Source: a virus (taxonomy: Duplodnaviria; Caudoviricetes). Taken from it: a stretch of DNA of 30,269 nt. The stretch spans positions 1-30,269 of IMG/VR virus record IMGVR_UViG_3300020403_000053. One strand, written 5' to 3'. Made by a program: the position numbers and the translations under genes. Position 1 is the stretch's first letter, and the number at the start of each line of letters is the position of its first letter. Positions 5,046 to 23,189 of the stretch are shown one piece after another. The notes below the pieces were generated by a model that searched no databases, had not been told where the DNA came from, and saw only the letters and a list, made by a program, of their open reading frames with translations.

Positions 5046-5684
5046 ATGGCTGGTGGTGCAAATCCAAATATGGTTCAACCTACTGCAAATCCGTTCATGA
5101 GGGCTTCTACGGCTAATCAGCAAGCACTGAACACTTATTCGAACCCAGGTGCAGCGGCTGCTAGTATGATGAACCCTTATAATCAACAAGTGGTTGACAC
5201 AACATTAAGAGATGTCGGTCAAGCTTCACAAATAGCAATGAACAATCTAGATGCACAAGCGCAAAAAGCCGGGGCATTTGGTGGGTCCAGGCATGGCATT
5301 GCAATGGCAGAACTAGGCAAGGGTTACCAACAGCAAGCGTTAGATAAAGTTGGCGCATTACGTCAGCAGGGTTACGGTCAGGCAATGAATAATGCTTTTA
5401 ATGCTGCATCAGGATTGCAAAATGCAGGACAACAAGCCTTTAACATGGGGCAAGCTGTTAACACTCAGCAAATGCAACAAGGCGCTATGCAGCAACAAAT
5501 GATGCAAAACCTTATCAATGCAACAAAAGGCCAATACGGAGGCTACACAGGTGGTCCAGGGCAAGGTTTAAATACTTTGTTACAGACAATATCTGGTCAG
5601 CCAAATATGACAGGTCAAACAAGTCAATTTCAGCCGGGCCTGTTTAATTATCTTCAACTAGGCGCAAGTATGTTTCCCAGGTAA
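5046..5684 (+). CDS. Putative DNA ejection protein 2 (Q/A/G-rich)
   Basis: NPYNQQVVD and GAFGGSRHG motifs typical of podovirus DNA-transfer proteins. Confidence 0.65.
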   Translation: MAGGANPNMVQPTANPFMRASTANQQALNTYSNPGAAAASMMNPYNQQVVDTTLRDVGQASQIAMNNLDAQAQKAGAFGGSRHGIAMAELGKGYQQQALDKVGALRQQGYGQAMNNAFNAASGLQNAGQQAFNMGQAVNTQQMQQGAMQQQMMQNLINATKGQYGGYTGGPGQGLNTLLQTISGQPNMTGQTSQFQPGLFNYLQLGASMFPR

Positions 5685-5695
5685 AAGGATAAATT

Positions 5696-13842: not shown

Positions 13843-14259
13843 ATGGATCTGCCCAAGGTAAATATCCTTACTGCTGGAACTATGGTCGTGGCTACTGTGG
13901 GAACAATCAGTGGGGCTATATGGTATGCCTCTGGGCAAGCATCTATTATAGAAGGACTTACACAACAGGTCGAAACTTTGACCATTGAAAACAATGCTAC
14001 TGACCGCACCAATTTGATCAGAGATGTTGAACAAAATGCGGAACAAATAGATGAAATAATTGATTATATCGTAGAACTTGAAGAAGAAGGTGAAGAAACC
14101 TTAGAGGATGTAATGTCCGAATTTGACGAGGTGTACGAAACGCAGGAGGGTTTTCTACTGCAATTTAATCAGATCGTGAAATTACAAGCTAGAGTAAAAA
14201 CTTTAGAAAATACTTTAGAATATTTGACAAGAAGCCCTGCACTATCTGACGGGAGGTAA
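13843..14259 (+). CDS. Membrane-anchored acidic coiled-coil protein
   Basis: N-terminal hydrophobic helix (ILTAGTMVVATVGTISGAIWYA) followed by coiled coil. Confidence 0.7.
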   Translation: MDLPKVNILTAGTMVVATVGTISGAIWYASGQASIIEGLTQQVETLTIENNATDRTNLIRDVEQNAEQIDEIIDYIVELEEEGEETLEDVMSEFDEVYETQEGFLLQFNQIVKLQARVKTLENTLEYLTRSPALSDGR

Positions 14260-14261
14260 AT

Positions 14262-16650: not shown

Positions 16651-17031
16651 CTAGCTCCCCACCACATTTTTCTTGTTACCGTTTACAGATAAAACTTCTT
16701 TTCTAGGCAATCTGTACCGATAAATTGTATCGGATATAGTATGCACTGGTAAATTTAACGCATTGGCTATTTGTGCATTTGTTAAATCATAACCAAGCAA
16801 AATATTAATCGTTCGAACTCTTGGCGATGCCTGAATACTATCTTTGCGTCTATGGGCATTACCATCTAATCTACTTTTTTGTATTGCAGGAGAACTTTGG
16901 ACACTATTTTCTTTTTGCTTTCTTTGTAGTTTAGTGTGTGACCCAATAACTTTTGCCATGTGTTCACCTATCTCAGCTTCAGTAGGTATCCTTCCTAACT
17001 CTTTCATAAGCTCTCGTCTAAAGTCTATCAT
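16651..17031 (-). CDS. HTH DNA-binding protein (sigma70 region-4/LuxR-like C-terminus)
   Basis: LTNAQIANALNLPVHTISDTIYR. Start moved to ATG 17031 because of the ATGA overlap with the upstream stop. Confidence 0.65.
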   Translation of the reverse strand: MIDFRRELMKELGRIPTEAEIGEHMAKVIGSHTKLQRKQKENSVQSSPAIQKSRLDGNAHRRKDSIQASPRVRTINILLGYDLTNAQIANALNLPVHTISDTIYRYRLPRKEVLSVNGNKKNVVGS

Positions 17032-17237
17032 ATTTTTACCCCATTTCGTCTTAGTTTTAATGTAAATTGTTTTAGTTCTTCCCTGGCTCTCCAAAGATCG
17101 TTTTTTATATCCGGGTGATGATCATGCCCGTACAGTCGATCTTGTAGGTTATCGACTTGACGCCGCAGGAAGCGTAGAAGCTCCCTGTCGGCAGGGTTTA
17201 AATCACTATGCAGCAATTTGCTCATGGTCACGATCAT
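17028..17237 (-). CDS. Hypothetical protein
   Basis: 69-aa helical ORF in a tightly packed early operon; exact start uncertain. Confidence 0.65.
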   Translation of the reverse strand: MIVTMSKLLHSDLNPADRELLRFLRRQVDNLQDRLYGHDHHPDIKNDLWRAREELKQFTLKLRRNGVKI

Positions 17238-17490
17238 CTATAAATCGTAAAACTTTTGGTAGAATTTTATAAATGCAACTCTTGTGATTAATTCGTCCAC
17301 TTATAAGAGCATTTTCTACCCAATCGGTTTGATGACCGCTCCATAAATCCCAACGGTTCTCGATATAATCAAGCACTAAAATAAATTTCTTTTCTGCTTT
17401 AGTGCCTGGCATCGAGGTGAATTTAGCACTGTCATAATCTAATTCAGTTACGTCAATGCTATAGTTCATTATTGCAATCTTATCAGCCAT
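17206..17490 (-). CDS. Hypothetical protein
   Basis: 94 aa, GAGGAG RBS, TAATG-coupled. Confidence 0.7.
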   Translation of the reverse strand: MADKIAIMNYSIDVTELDYDSAKFTSMPGTKAEKKFILVLDYIENRWDLWSGHQTDWVENALISGRINHKSCIYKILPKVLRFIDDRDHEQIAA

Positions 17491-17750
17491 TATAAACTCT
17501 CCTCTAAAGCCCAGCCTATATCTTCTTCGTACTGCTTTTCGATATATGCCTTAATACGTTCTGGCAGTTTGTATGCATCAGTTGCTTTTAGAAAAGCTTT
17601 GTGCTTACGTCCATTTTCCAGGTAAATATCAACGTGTTCGATAATGCGGTCACGGTAGTCAACTACCGCTTCCGCACAGATCTTAATTGGTAGACCCTTA
17701 ACGCACACCTCAAGAAAACAACTAGTGGTATATGTGGCTTGTCTACGCAT
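17490..17750 (-). CDS. Hypothetical protein
   Basis: 86 aa, TAATG-coupled at both ends. Confidence 0.7.
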   Translation of the reverse strand: MRRQATYTTSCFLEVCVKGLPIKICAEAVVDYRDRIIEHVDIYLENGRKHKAFLKATDAYKLPERIKAYIEKQYEEDIGWALEESL

Positions 17751-18001
17751 TATAAAGCCTCGTTATATTCGTTAGCTCTTTTAACAGGCTTATGTGTAAT
17801 TTTGATCATATCATAATCGACAAGAATTTGGTGCAATACATCACCTTGTTCATCATGGGAAAATTCAATACCCAACTCGTCTTTAAATATGTCAGCTACT
17901 TTGCTTTGTACATTTGCAAGCTGTTGCACACCCATAGTACCTGGACGCATTCCAACAAGCGTTGCATATAATTGTAATTGATGATCTGTAAAATTTTCCA
18001 T
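17750..18001 (-). CDS. Hypothetical early protein
   Basis: 83 aa, RBS GTGAGGT, first gene after a promoter-like element. Confidence 0.7.
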   Translation of the reverse strand: MENFTDHQLQLYATLVGMRPGTMGVQQLANVQSKVADIFKDELGIEFSHDEQGDVLHQILVDYDMIKITHKPVKRANEYNEAL

Positions 18002-18039
18002 ACTAGTTTTTTTACCTCACTGTTTAGTATGTTACTACA

Positions 18040-18077
18040 TTAAGTATCTTATAGGCTACAATTCAATAGCCTACAAG
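18040..18077 (-). promoter_or_regulatory. Early promoter/operator copy 1 (TTGAATTGTAGC; inverted repeat TAGGCTA/TAGCCTA)
   Basis: Inverted repeat 18052-18058/18067-18073; TTGTAG-N17-TATAAG on the minus strand. Confidence 0.55.
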
Positions 18078-18388: not shown

Positions 18389-18553
18389 TTATATCTCCCT
18401 TACTTCATCATCGAACAACCAAGCTATGGTATCGTTAACAAGAACAAAAACATTGTTATGATGAATTTGTACGATTGTACCTATTTGTCCGTCATGCGAT
18501 CCTCTGTGTAACCTACTACTTTCAATCATAACTTTTGTATTTACTTCTAACAT
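18389..18553 (-). CDS. 54-aa small beta-rich (SH3/KOW-like) protein (not in ORF track)
   Basis: MLEVNTKVMIESSRLHRGSHDGQIGTIVQIHHNNVFVLVNDTIAWLFDDEVREI; AAGGAG RBS. Confidence 0.7.
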   Translation of the reverse strand: MLEVNTKVMIESSRLHRGSHDGQIGTIVQIHHNNVFVLVNDTIAWLFDDEVREI

Positions 18554-18581
18554 TTCTTATCTCCTTGTTACCTCTATACTA

Positions 18582-18625
18582 CTTATATGGGGATTAGGTG
18601 CTACAATTACAAGGGCAGCACCTAA
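18582..18625 (-). promoter_or_regulatory. Early promoter/operator copy 2 (CCCTTGTAATTGTAGCACC; 9-bp inverted repeat)
   Basis: TTAGGTGCT 18594-18602 / AGCACCTAA 18617-18625; CTTGTA-N17-CCATAT on the minus strand. Confidence 0.65.
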
Positions 18626-18640
18626 AGTTTTTTTATTTTT

Positions 18641-18895
18641 TTAAATCTGCAATTTCCATTTTTTACCGTTTAATCCTGCAACTCTTTCACCAGCTACGTT
18701 TATTTCTATTGTTGGCTTGTAAGTTTTACCTGGTGCTTTGTCAGTTACTGGGTTGCAAAATCTTAAAACCTGTTCAACATTTAATAGATCAAGTCTGTCT
18801 CTTGTTGTTTTAAGAACTTCTAAAGTTAAATTTTCTGAACCAATCTTTGCTAATTGCAATAATATTTTAGCCTCGTTTTCAGTTAACTTAATCAT
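18641..18895 (-). CDS. Hypothetical protein
   Basis: Start moved to MIKLTENE (ATG 18895), which follows an AAGGGAG RBS. Confidence 0.65.
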   Translation of the reverse strand: MIKLTENEAKILLQLAKIGSENLTLEVLKTTRDRLDLLNVEQVLRFCNPVTDKAPGKTYKPTIEINVAGERVAGLNGKKWKLQI

Positions 18896-18897
18896 AA

Positions 18898-19104
18898 TTA
18901 TATCTCCCTTACCCATGCGCCGTTGATACCTGAAAAACGGATGCTTTTGTTGATTTGTTTAGCTAACTTCTTTGCTTCTTTCTCACTGTCAGCTTGTACC
19001 TCTGCAAGCACAACAACTTTTCTTTTAGAATAATCACCATAACCATACTCAGCGGTGTTTGGTGTTGGCTCGTATCTTTCTTCGACTATTTGGTAGGTGT
19101 TCAT
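18898..19104 (-). CDS. Hypothetical early protein
   Basis: 68 aa, AAGGAG RBS, EVQADSEKEAKKLA motif. Confidence 0.7.
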   Translation of the reverse strand: MNTYQIVEERYEPTPNTAEYGYGDYSKRKVVVLAEVQADSEKEAKKLAKQINKSIRFSGINGAWVREI

Positions 19105-19124
19105 TTTTTTCTCCTTTTTACCTT

Positions 19125-19163
19125 ATATTATATATGTAGTATCGGTGCTACAAATATCAAGGG
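19125..19163 (-). promoter_or_regulatory. Early promoter/operator copy 3 (CCCTTGATATTTGTAGCACC...TATAAT)
   Basis: GGTGCTACAA 19144-19153 is identical to 18597-18606 and is followed by CAAGGG in both; AT-rich UP-like tract upstream. Confidence 0.65.
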
Positions 19164-19209: not shown

Positions 19210-19701
19210 GTGATTATAGGGAGTAAATCGTTGAATTTATTAGAAACCATTGGGGATATAAATTTGCAGAAAATTAACAAAGTAGAGTTTGAGGTATCAG
19301 GTCAGCCTGTTGGCAAGGGTAGACCTCGATTTACTAGGACCGGGCAAGTGTATACCCCTCCTAAAACCAGGGAGTATGAGCAACGTATCCATGCAGCGGC
19401 TTGGTCAGTAATGCAGGAACAAAAGCTAGAGCCAACAGAAAAATTTGTTCACATGGAAGTAAAAGCATTTATGGAAATACCTAAATCTTGGTCTAAAATA
19501 AAAAGATTGGAGGCAGAATATGGTGTCATAAAACCAACTTGTAAGCCTGATTTAGACAACATTGTAAAATCAGTGGGTGATGGACTAGAAAATGTTGTTT
19601 ACTATTCAGATAAACAAGTAACCAGCATTGATGCTAAAAAGGTCTATTGTCACCCGGATAAAGGACCAGTGATTTATGTGTCTATATCTTGGACAGAATA
19701 G
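19210..19701 (+). CDS. rusA: RusA-family Holliday junction resolvase
   Basis: GQPVGKGRPRF, KPDLDNIVKSVGDGL and YSDKQV catalytic Asp motifs; true start may be TTG near 19264. Confidence 0.9.
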   Translation: MIIGSKSLNLLETIGDINLQKINKVEFEVSGQPVGKGRPRFTRTGQVYTPPKTREYEQRIHAAAWSVMQEQKLEPTEKFVHMEVKAFMEIPKSWSKIKRLEAEYGVIKPTCKPDLDNIVKSVGDGLENVVYYSDKQVTSIDAKKVYCHPDKGPVIYVSISWTE

Positions 19702-20888: not shown

Positions 20889-21310
20889 AATGGTATCTCA
20901 TCGTCAAAGTCTAAGTCATCTTTAGTGACCTGGCGTTCGGCTGGATCTGTGTTGCTTAGATCCATTAGGTTAGCACCCTCTACTTGTGCATTTGTTTGCG
21001 CTGGCGGCATAGTTGACTGTTCTTGTCTGTCACCCCCACCCATTAATTCTAAATGATTGGCACTAACAGATAGATAGGTTTTACCGTTATATTCTCTTGT
21101 CTTTAGCTCACCACTAGCGACAACCTGTTTACCTTTCTTAATGTAGGCAGCAAGCTTTGTGTTACTTGTGATAACGTCAAAAAACATTACTCCTTTGTTT
21201 TGTCCATATCCATCTGCAACTGCGAGAGAAAAGGTTGCAAACTCCCTTCCCTCTTTCTGACGAACTTCACTGTCTTTAGTGCTACGCCCTGCGATTGTAA
21301 TAGCTTTCAT
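20885..21310 (-). CDS. ssb: Single-stranded DNA-binding protein
   Basis: ITIAGR, FSLAV, YIKKGKQVVASGELKTREY and C-terminal DFDDEIPF. Confidence 0.95.
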   Translation of the reverse strand: MKAITIAGRSTKDSEVRQKEGREFATFSLAVADGYGQNKGVMFFDVITSNTKLAAYIKKGKQVVASGELKTREYNGKTYLSVSANHLELMGGGDRQEQSTMPPAQTNAQVEGANLMDLSNTDPAERQVTKDDLDFDDEIPF

Positions 21311-21936
21311 ATTTCTAACTCCAATTTTCTTTTGTCTCGTGCTTCCACAACTTGGTTATACTGTTCTTCAGTAATATCTTTTCGGTTTAGTAATTTAGTA
21401 AAGTTACTTTCTCCCTTCTCAAAACTTTCAGCGGTACAATTTTCATAAAACTCTATGGCGGTATCCACACGATCTTGAGTAGATAATTCCATAATCTGTT
21501 TTTGTTCTTTGACCGGGGGTTCAATTTCATTTTCTGGTAAATCCTCACCAGCATAAATATAATGACCTAGACCATGCATAGCGATAGCCTTAACTAAGCA
21601 GCGCATTCGTGCATCACTTATTTCTCTGGATGTTGGACTAGCTTTTGAATTGTTTTTAAAGTCCATGACAGGTAGCCACATCATATGCTCCTGTCCTTCT
21701 ATGGTAACACTTACCCGGACCTCTACGGTATTGTTTGGATAGATAATATCCTCATGGATTGTATAGGTTGCTTCAGGGTAAAACTTTTTAACCTCACCCC
21801 ATGCCCAGGCCCATGACAAATAACTAAGGCTGTATGGCTTGCCTGACTTGTCTTTGTACCATTTCTTTTCGATCTTTTCTGTGACCGGGTGTTTTGATAA
21901 CACTTCCCACACTGATTTTACTTTTTTATTCGACAT
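21307..21936 (-). CDS. sak: Sak (Rad52-like, DUF1071) single-strand annealing protein
   Basis: LSYLSWAWAW, MWLPVMD and MRCLVKAIAMHGLGHYIYAGEDLP; start moved to MSNKK (GGGAG before ATG 21936). Confidence 0.9.
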   Translation of the reverse strand: MSNKKVKSVWEVLSKHPVTEKIEKKWYKDKSGKPYSLSYLSWAWAWGEVKKFYPEATYTIHEDIIYPNNTVEVRVSVTIEGQEHMMWLPVMDFKNNSKASPTSREISDARMRCLVKAIAMHGLGHYIYAGEDLPENEIEPPVKEQKQIMELSTQDRVDTAIEFYENCTAESFEKGESNFTKLLNRKDITEEQYNQVVEARDKRKLELEI

Positions 21937-22111
21937 CTCCCATCTCCCTTCTAAGTTGCTGATCATAAGAGTTTGCACTATTAACACCGTCTTGTATGGC
22001 ATTAATAATTTCTTTTGCTTCAAATGGACTGATGTGAAGCTTCACCATAGCTTTGTATACAGAAGCAGTAATATGCAAATGAGATACATAGTTTATCCGT
22101 CTTTTATCCAT
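21926..22111 (-). CDS. Hypothetical protein, first gene of recombination operon
   Basis: 61 aa, GAGGT RBS, overlaps the sak start. Confidence 0.65.
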   Translation of the reverse strand: MDKRRINYVSHLHITASVYKAMVKLHISPFEAKEIINAIQDGVNSANSYDQQLRREMGDVE

Positions 22112-22141
22112 TTTTACCTCGTTATTTTTTTTAGTGTGTGT

Positions 22142-22176
22142 CTTGCAATATAATCATTTGTAGCCTAAATACAACC
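22142..22176. promoter_or_regulatory. Overlapping divergent promoters with central ATTTGTAGC box
   Basis: Plus strand: CTTGCA(22142)-N17-CTAAAT(22165), close to the alphaproteobacterial sigma70 consensus CTTGAC-N17-CTATAT. Minus strand: TTGTAT-N16-TATATT. Confidence 0.6.
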
Positions 22177-22179
22177 TTA

Positions 22180-22392
22180 ATGGCAAAAAAAGAGGAAAAA
22201 AAAGTGTACCCAGATAGAATGTTAACTTTGGAATATATTCAAAAAATATTGAAAAGTGACAGGAATATTGCTGCTGTATCTAAGAAAACTGGTATCTCAC
22301 GTTGGACTATATATCGTTTGCGTGATGGTGTTGGTGATGCACAGTATGAAACTGTTAAGACGCTATCAGATTATTTTGATAGTCCGAATTAA
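22180..22392 (+). CDS. Cro/XRE-family HTH regulator
   Basis: NIAAVSKKTGISRWTIYRLRDG...YETVKTLSDYF; start is ATG 22180 or GTG 22204. Confidence 0.85.
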   Translation: MAKKEEKKVYPDRMLTLEYIQKILKSDRNIAAVSKKTGISRWTIYRLRDGVGDAQYETVKTLSDYFDSPN

Positions 22393-22419
22393 AAAAAAGA
22401 CCCACTATAAAAGTGGGCC
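22391..22419 (-). terminator. Intrinsic terminator facing leftward
   Basis: Minus strand reads GGCCCACU-UUUAU-AGUGGGUC-U8; the G-U pair and U-tract exist only on the minus strand. Confidence 0.75.
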
Positions 22420-22465
22420 AGTGTGAGGTAAAAAGGATTATCACAGGCGTGGATAAACCTTAGTG
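22391..22465 (-). ncRNA. Putative ~75-nt anti-RBS small RNA
   Basis: Promoter-like CTTTCT(22497-22492)-N17-CTATCT(22474-22469), then a 5' hairpin, linker UCCUUUUUACCUCAC, and terminator. Confidence 0.6.
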
Positions 22466-22508
22466 CGAAGATAGACTAAGAAATTAATATTAGAAAGAGG
22501 TAAATTAA

Positions 22509-23189
22509 ATGTCACATTATATGACCGCATTAGCAATGAAACAAAGAGGCTTGCCGCCATACTCTAAAATACTTTTGTATTGGCTTGCCGATCATCACAA
22601 CGCAGAAACAAACAGATGCTTCCCCAGCCTAAGTAGGTTATCGAAGCTATGTGAAATATCTAAACGATCTGTACAAAACCATCTGCAAAACCTAAAGGCT
22701 TGTGGATTAATAAGTGTCGAACATTCTTACCGGGATGATGGGCAACAAACATCAAATAATTATCTATTACATTTATCAGAAGAGTGGGTGCATGATATGC
22801 CAGGTGGGGATGCAGAATATGCTACCCCAGGGGTGCAGGATTTGCCAGCCAATAACCTTGGAAGTAATAACCCTGGAAGAGAAATAGTATTGGTCAGAAA
22901 TATAGAACAAACCATTGCTGACTTTGAAGAGTGGTGGAAGGTCTATCCTAGAAAAGTAGGGAAGTATAAAGCATCACCAGCATTTGCTAAAGCTTGTCAC
23001 ATAACAAATTTTGATGAGTTATTGGAAGCAACAAAAAGATTTGCTAAAGCTTGTGAGGGTCAAGATAAACAATTTATTCCACATCCGACAACCTGGTTAA
23101 ATCAACAGAGGTGGAAAGATGATATTGAAGGTAAAGTTGTTAGTATTAAAAATGTTGTTCTTAAAGACATGGGGTTAAGCTATGAATAA
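22509..23189 (+). CDS. Replication initiator (N-terminal wHTH; C-terminal FEEWW..YPRK domain)
   Basis: LADHHN...CFPSLSRLSKLCEIS...L...GLI; FEEWWKVYPRKVGK; FIPHPTTWLNQQRW; internal iterons. Confidence 0.85.
   Translation: MSHYMTALAMKQRGLPPYSKILLYWLADHHNAETNRCFPSLSRLSKLCEISKRSVQNHLQNLKACGLISVEHSYRDDGQQTSNNYLLHLSEEWVHDMPGGDAEYATPGVQDLPANNLGSNNPGREIVLVRNIEQTIADFEEWWKVYPRKVGKYKASPAFAKACHITNFDELLEATKRFAKACEGQDKQFIPHPTTWLNQQRWKDDIEGKVVSIKNVVLKDMGLSYE
22786..22879. repeat. Putative replication origin: three 17-bp iterons plus a 14-bp tandem pair
   Basis: GGGTGCATGATATGCCA 22786, GGATGCAGAATATGCTA 22808, GGGTGCAGGATTTGCCA 22831; AATAACCYTGGAAG at 22851 and 22866. Confidence 0.75.

Follow-up and report, generated by a model that had tools for sequence, protein, structure and literature searches.

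A predicted small RNA on the minus strand between a cro-like gene and a replication initiator probably represses the early genes of its phage, which belongs to an uncultured marine family, in trans, by pairing with their ribosome-binding sites (RBSs). An RNA repressor of early genes had been proposed in the initial annotation of this DNA, and it is supported by the ranking of targets, the shuffle controls and the covariation of linker and leader from lineage to lineage.

The window, i.e., the whole stretch of DNA analysed, is a virus record of 30,269 bases with 40% G+C. Its annotated genes include an SU10-type portal and capsid, lysis genes and a terminase, as well as a block of small leftward genes, RusA, NinB, SSB, Sak, a lone cro-like helix-turn-helix (HTH) gene and an O-like initiator. 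Protein searches with the initiator, the capsid, Sak and the terminase found no isolated phage with more than 60% identity. The host is probably a Roseobacter-group bacterium, because the initiator relatives in cellular records belong to Rhodobacterales in 4/4 cases and one homologue of the first leftward protein bears the label Lentibacter. There is no gene between the end of cro (22392) and the start of the initiator (22509), hence no cII. The features discussed below are collected in Table 1.

Table 1. Positions and strands of the genes, signals and predicted pairing sites in the window.
Feature	Position	Strand	Remarks
Predicted small RNA, 71 nt	22391..22461	-	Hairpin, linker, terminator; candidate transcript in the cro-initiator interval
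-35 hexamer TTTCTA	22491..22496	-	Overlaps the ribosome-binding region of the initiator
-10 hexamer TATCTT	22468..22473	-	17-nt spacer; predicted start 7 nt downstream, at 22461
Hairpin 1	22433..22461	-	Stem covaries; GCCUGUG on the loop side invariant
Linker (seed) UCCUUUUUACCUCAC	22423..22437	-	15-nt pyrimidine stretch; U run between two anti-Shine-Dalgarno cores
Intrinsic terminator	22391..22419	-	8-bp stem (22419-22399, one G-U pair) and U8; reaches the cro stop codon
Second candidate promoter TTGTTT-17-TATAAT	22516..22544	-	Inside the first codons of the initiator; would give a form of ~118 nt covering the initiator RBS in cis
cro-like lone HTH gene	22204..22392	+	GTG start at 22204, in-frame ATG at 22180; weak HTH_3 match (E 8e-4)
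Lambda O-like replication initiator	22509..23189	+	phrog_270 (E 2e-45)
First leftward gene, 61 aa	21926..22111	-	11-nt overlap of its 3' end with the start of sak
Sak annealase	21307..21936	-	SSB and NinB/Orf come next; recombination operon following target 1
Target 1: RBS and start of the first leftward gene	22111..22120	-	10/10; best covarying target across lineages
Target: leader of cassette gene 18898-19104	19112..19123	-	AGGTAAAAAGGA, 12/12
Target: leader of cassette gene 18389-18553	18562..18574	-	12/13
Target: leader of cassette gene 17750-18001	18009..18020	-	12/12; best score in the window
Target: RBS of 127-aa gene 16651-17031	17033..17043	-	11 bp, one G-U
Weaker candidate target: initiator RBS	22497..22504	+	8 bp; rank 3/49
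Operator-like boxes between -35 and -10 of target promoters	19147-19153, 18600-18606, 18055-18061	-	Cassette promoters
Operator-like box	22158-22164	+	Divergent promoter

The promoter-like site first described upstream of the hairpin is present, with its register corrected: the hexamers read TTTCTA-17-TATCTT rather than CTTTCT-N17-CTATCT. Since the likely start is the first base of hairpin 1, the RNA would be ~71 nt long, a refinement of the ~75 nt initially expected for a minus-strand transcript whose hairpin, linker and U8 terminator we confirmed. A 76-nt stretch of the minus strand folds well (z -3.97, with 0/200 shuffles as good), against a z of -2.31 for the plus strand. The minimum free energy fold has the CCUU of the linker (22436-22433) paired into the base of hairpin 1. 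The part of the linker reading CCTTTTTACCTC is invariant in 10/10 close relatives, a figure that partly reflects selection by the search pattern. Rfam gave nothing at the gathering score in the window or the 10 relatives, and at E up to 10 it gave 8 weak matches, all far under the cut-off.

To place the element among relatives, we collected 208 loci with an initiator start from viral, metagenome and genome contigs, 119 of which were left after removal of duplicates and short flanks; an automatic terminator call sorted these into long-spacer (73) and short-spacer (32) classes and left 14 uncalled. The succession of hairpin, linker and terminator recurs at the same place in 73/119 of the non-redundant relatives, including several lineages with unrelated linkers. 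A TT..-16/18-TA...T promoter is found just upstream of the initiator in 58 of the 73 long-spacer loci, vs 13.3 +/- 3.3 (maximum 24) in 200 shuffles. The bases that follow its -10 also bear a signature, with a purine at the seventh position in 52/58 promoter-bearing loci and pyrimidines at the fifth, sixth and eighth in 53-54/58. The minus strand outfolds the plus strand in 66/73 loci, although the terminators had been chosen from the minus strand to begin with. A comparison of 10 close relatives shows both-side changes in 5 of the 17 pairs of the structure, and 95% of the cells pair, vs 31-46% in slid structures; the shuffle control for this covariation is inflated by kinship among the ten. 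Hairpin 1 accounts for both-side changes in 4 of its 8 pairs in the same relatives, and its G-U pairs favour the minus strand. We conclude that the predicted RNA element is real and conserved.

The linker matches quoted in the initial annotation were all found, including those of 8 nt at 22497-22504 and 14253-14260. Perfect matches of at least 10 nt number three in the window, all of them at RBSs of leftward genes; Markov-simulated windows hold a mean of 0.64 such matches anywhere, and at least three in 7/200 cases. We scored 49 start regions of the window with a simplified hybridisation-plus-accessibility model in custom code, after discarding raw duplex folding without accessibility as too noisy. 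The top 6 of the 49 are five leftward early genes and the initiator: the start at 18001 scores -11.6, the 127-aa gene -7.5 (its start was entered 3 nt off), rep -7.5, 18553 -7.3, 22111 -7.2 and 19104 -4.5 (-11.7 without target structure). The mean for the four early leaders named at the outset is -7.6, vs -3.4 for 300 shuffled linkers. It had been cautioned that the match might reflect the Shine-Dalgarno (SD) core itself; shuffles that keep the anti-SD core have a mean of -4.1, and the real early score is reached by 0/300 of them, as by 0/300 of the plain shuffles. When all 16 leftward genes are set against 29 late genes there is no score shift (p 0.33), which means that only promoter-proximal genes match.

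Equally good scores for late genes or host RBSs would have spoken against specific repression. One late-gene leader, overlooked at first (5679-5689, AGGTAAAAGGA, gene 5696), offers 11 bp with a bulge and scores as well as the targets without target accessibility (-10.4) and -3.7 with it; late leaders are unlike the early targets once accessibility is counted. The genome G008 served as a substitute for the host, which may differ from it: of 261 start regions in 280 kb, 1/261 scores -7.1 or lower with target structure, and 16/261 score -10.7 or lower without it, as well as the targets do. Host leaders of this kind are thus unlike the early targets when target structure is counted. The complete relative G001 gives a similar ranking, with early-region genes filling 7 of the top 8 places among 54 start regions. 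The leader of its homologue of the 127-aa gene ranks 7th of the 54, and this gene is predicted as a target in two genomes. The 127-aa protein itself (16651-17031, minus strand) has a weak match to sigma-70 region 3 (E 1.8e-5, just under the cut-off) and a FliA-like one (E 0.008), and it may be a sigma mimic or a late regulator.

Linker and leader also change jointly. Close relatives all have the same linker, and across lineages it covaries with the target leaders; in most lineages its best partner is the RBS of the first leftward gene of that very lineage. By eye, it pairs with the leader of the first leftward gene as CCUUUUUACCUC with GAGGUAAAAA in the window, UUCCUCCAUUUUUA with UAAAAAUGGAG in L040, CCUUACUUAUUGCU with AGCAAUAAAUGAGG in L032, UUCCUUUUUUGCUAU with AUAGCAAAAAAGGAG in L138, UCCUUAUUGCCU with AGGCAAUAAGGG in L164, UUUUCCCUUC with GAAGGGAAAA in L205, and UUUCAUUUGAUA with UAUCAAAUGGAG in L147. 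Because these pairs were chosen after being seen, we ran an automatic test; we give no weight to a matrix of 8 clades (1/40,320), whose clades were picked post hoc after the matches had been seen. The automatic test started from 93 loci with enough left flank, of which 80 had a terminator called and 73 had at least five leftward genes, forming 25 clusters; it kept mis-called starts (L188, L059), and its energies were computed with custom simplified hybridisation code. In the long class (17 clusters), the linker scores -8.16 against the first leftward gene of its own genome vs -5.37 against that of others (0/100,000 permutations). The 7 short-class clusters have no such preference (39,587/100,000), and covariation is absent from the short-spacer class (39,587 and 45,885 of 100,000 permutations). 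When related clusters are merged by hand into 9 groups (49 loci, related to each other inside the groups), the values are -8.0 vs -4.7 kcal/mol (2/100,000 permutations). In the same groups the cassette leaders reach 76/100,000 and the initiator RBS (rep) 1749/100,000, and the result is null for cro (48,390), sak (38,242) and rightward genes (25,589 and 39,841 of 100,000). Hence cro, which by eye looked like a target in some lineages, was rejected as a general one.

The signal for the first leftward gene withstands the removal of any single group, the window's included (5/40,320 or less). It is weakened by masking the SD core (1231/100,000), after which the window's own group has no signal, and it is small in 3/9 groups: L124 (-0.1), L059 (-0.6, partly mis-called starts) and L027 (-1.6). 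Own-pair energy is the same when both strands are flipped (-11.33 vs -11.34), so that target pairing alone cannot fix the strand. Covariation points to the first leftward gene as the best-conserved predicted target, with the cassette genes second.

The position of the RNA invites another interpretation, which we regard as improbable: it might be mainly a cis-antisense RNA, or mark a convergent promoter, that tunes the cro-initiator message or replication in the manner of lambda pO/OOP or of a plasmid counter-transcript, the matches in trans being secondary. The position and direction are indeed those of pO/OOP as given in the excerpts of PMC3985674. Moreover, short-spacer loci have TTG(C/T)TT-17-TATA(A/G)T inside the initiator in 29/29 cases, a count that leaves out L004, L024 and L095, dropped by hand, where this promoter is absent and the terminator calls looked wrong or the loci were distant. 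These relatives (e.g., L003, L007, L050) encode Tyr4 by TAT in 29/29 and Gln12 by CAA in 29/29, vs 58% TAT and 73% CAA in the rest of the initiator gene. This points to a second class of RNA in short-spacer loci, one that would be antisense in cis to the rep RBS. In the window and 17 close loci the -10 of the in-gene promoter is kept throughout (18/18), and 12 of the 18 have CTGTTT at -35. A perfect cis-complement of the rep leader would be present in the RNA of the short-spacer relatives and in the possible 118-nt form, not in the 71-nt form, which stops 36 nt short of the initiator RBS. The initiator RBS also has the mild preference for its own linker given above. Yet an RNA acting mainly in cis would have no need of complementarity to distant leaders, and from lineage to lineage the linker changes along with the leader of the first leftward gene; in addition, the codons of the in-gene promoter are at background in long-spacer loci overall (TAT 41/61, CAA 44/68). 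A cis-acting long form alongside the trans-acting one is nevertheless plausible, because the in-gene promoter is present in 29/29 short-class loci and its -10 is kept 18/18 in the window's family.

The organisation of the early genes bears on how the leader motifs may have spread. Outside the RNA, the seed-type motif has 39 copies in 11 close loci, 39/39 before an ATG and 34/39 directly behind a promoter with an operator-like box, the patterns having been drawn from these same sites. The genes that follow are often unrelated to each other. An upstream leader peptide similar to plasmid tap was considered and rejected: the motif is followed by an ATG in some relatives, and such an ATG is absent in the window and in L002. 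The boxes are palindrome-like (TGTAG/TGTATC ... CTACA/GATACA), occur also in the cassette promoters of L111, L168 and L174, and are probably operators bound by the cro-like HTH protein. Four TTGTAGC-box promoters had been described originally; the boxes exist, but TTGTAGC as such is unspecific (8 further copies in the window), and the fourth one (22158) belongs to the plus strand. Related contigs skip stretches 18559-19110 and 17217-17494 of the window or break at leader motifs, and the early genes are, by this comparison, exchangeable cassettes.

There is a slim chance that recombination among cassettes has spread the motif as a repeated promoter-leader module or as a site bound by a protein, and that one inverted copy lies before a terminator by chance, with no regulatory pairing at all. 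In its favour, contigs have 18559 fused to 19110 at leader motifs, where loose ends also cluster; flipping both strands makes no difference; a 10-nt inverted repeat surrounds cro (22111-22120 / 22425-22434); and leaders could become alike through cassette exchange at the motif, with no RNA involved. However, the copy is found where a structured element with its own promoter, start signature and terminator is left unpaired; the first leftward gene belongs to a conserved homologous family and is no swapped cassette; and the cro and sak leaders do not covary. Cassette swapping may explain part of the likeness of cassette leaders, but not the covariation of the first gene.

That gene overlaps the next start codon in 15/17 loci and encodes a protein family of 57-89 aa, with a predicted two-helix hairpin (pLDDT 82), for which we found no informative match in PHROGs, Pfam, NCBIfam, PDB sequences, Atlas or a viral fold search. 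An antitoxin-like RNA of type I, whose sole essential job would be to restrain a toxic first leftward protein (kil/icd-like), all other matches being incidental, would agree with the covariation being strongest for this single small gene and with its protein lacking a known family, but its chance is slimmer still, as the predicted hairpin of a charged protein is not a single hydrophobic helix and cassette leaders before unrelated genes match equally well or better.

Under repression in trans, which we favour, the single-stranded linker would pair with the RBSs of the phage's own early genes and block their translation. The host sigma-70 would transcribe the RNA from a promoter devoid of operator box, so that the RNA would accumulate once the DNA is inside the cell and as its copy number rises. 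A block on the first leftward gene would also dampen the overlapping sak-ssb-ninB operon, via translational coupling or via Rho polarity of the sRNA-induced kind described in the excerpts of PMC12360218. The small HTH protein would repress the same promoters at the DNA level, resulting in a two-layer switch-off. The RNA would most likely serve to turn early genes off after a delay in lytic growth, and a likely side effect is that kin with the same seed are excluded when they arrive later. We favour a lytic use because integrase, CI peptidase and ParA were not found. The initial description of a phage with no recognisable CI or integrase extends to its near-complete relatives, in which a tyrosine integrase is found in 0/7 virus records of at least 94% estimated completeness, and peptidase S24 (CI peptidase), resolvase and ParA in 0/5 each; PHROGs searches of 52 of the 54 called G001 proteins gave no integration or repressor family at E 1e-5. 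It is possible that lysogeny genes exist in an unrecognised form.

A bolder proposal, which we consider doubtful, is that in this family of marine Rhodobacterales phages the RNA does the job of CI, and that seed changes between lineages go together with changes in the leaders of every operator-bearing early promoter, so that both define immunity groups. Seed switching between lineages is compatible with immunity specificity. If the proposal were true, a phage without integrase, CI or partition system could stay silent in starved hosts (pseudolysogeny), kin with the same seed would be excluded, and sequence alone would suffice to read the immunity code.

Among known systems, the element most likely works like c4 and sits like OOP, and it is a member of neither. 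According to the excerpts of PMC12197685 and PMC8546580, c4 of P1 and P7 acts in trans, pairs around the RBS and blocks translation, and its specificity in P1 vs P7 leads to heteroimmunity; the title of a reference in PMC8546580 gives its length as 77 nt. Pairing in trans around the RBS of a phage mRNA is the shared trait, here by prediction and covariation. The differences are that the window and the 10 relatives have no match to the c4 covariance model (RF01695), which is absent even from the 8 weak hits at E <=10; that one linker serves as seed here, whereas c4 uses loops; that there are at least five predicted targets in separate transcription units, whereas c4 targets the ant mRNA; that the RNA has its own promoter and terminator; and that no ant annotation, S24 domain, CI or anti-repressor was found here, the target protein having no family.

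OOP, a short leftward transcript of the interval between cro and the initiator, starts where the initiator gene has its 5' end (excerpts of PMC3985674); it is cis-antisense to cII and acts through RNase III (excerpts of PMC12197685 and PMC3985674). For the early replication of lambda, a silencing that is CI-independent and OOP-dependent is reported (excerpts of PMC3349717). The OOP-like position suggested in the initial annotation is borne out by a promoter that faces leftward where the O-like initiator begins, identified by consensus and conservation, and the short-spacer relatives resemble OOP most. The difference is that there is no cII between cro and initiator here, and that the evidence points to distant RBSs. 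The CI RNA of P4 represses the phage's own replication and early genes, a likeness in RNA-based repression, but it is processed from the transcript that it controls and pairs with seqA/seqC, causing premature termination (excerpts of PMC4825925), whereas the RNA here is on the opposite strand and elsewhere, matches SD regions, and has targets 300-5400 nt away behind separate promoters. P22 sar RNA and 24B_1 of Phi24B lower the translation of a phage regulatory gene (excerpts of PMC12197685); unlike here, they have a single anti-repressor target and belong to integrating phages with CI. As to plasmid counter-transcripts, ParA was found in 0/5 relatives of this phage; as to Hfq-dependent trans-acting sRNAs, a U8 terminator is present here.

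The literature searched, which covered few subscription journals, held nothing on this RNA or on the phage family. Each of the phage RNAs compared here that act on phage genes has one target message, and the prophages they serve, integrating or plasmid, have a protein repressor. The present RNA is predicted to govern the first genes of many early promoters, in phages without recognisable lysogeny genes. Seed and targets have been rewritten together several times, which provides natural compensatory pairs. The RNA is a candidate for the molecular basis by which marine phages shut off early genes or enter pseudolysogeny. A further suggestion is that cis-acting RNAs in the OOP position can come to act in trans.

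Some further observations concern the RNA and its surroundings. The GCCUGUG of hairpin 1 (22442-22448, minus strand) is invariant in 10/10 close relatives, partly through selection by the search pattern; a phage target for it was sought and rejected, the CACAGG sites having no consistent position, and it is possible that the motif has a host target or is a protein site. In L024 and L036-L044, linkers 60-100 nt upstream of the initiator carry CCUCC-type motifs, which we take to be similar to those of alphaproteobacterial 'cuckoo' RNAs; an Rfam search of L024 and L040 gave no match. The initiator gene contains short direct repeats, three 18-mers at 22-23 nt spacing (22786-22879) and two 14-mers (22969-23054), which may be iterons of a lambda-like origin. 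RusA (19231-19701, plus strand) runs against the neighbouring leftward genes from a promoter divergent to that of the 19104 cassette, and in the L027 group it is placed between the regulator and the RNA. Finally, the major capsid gene of the complete relative G001 (L211:6077-6377) is in two parts ~300 bases apart, possibly split by an intron or insertion.
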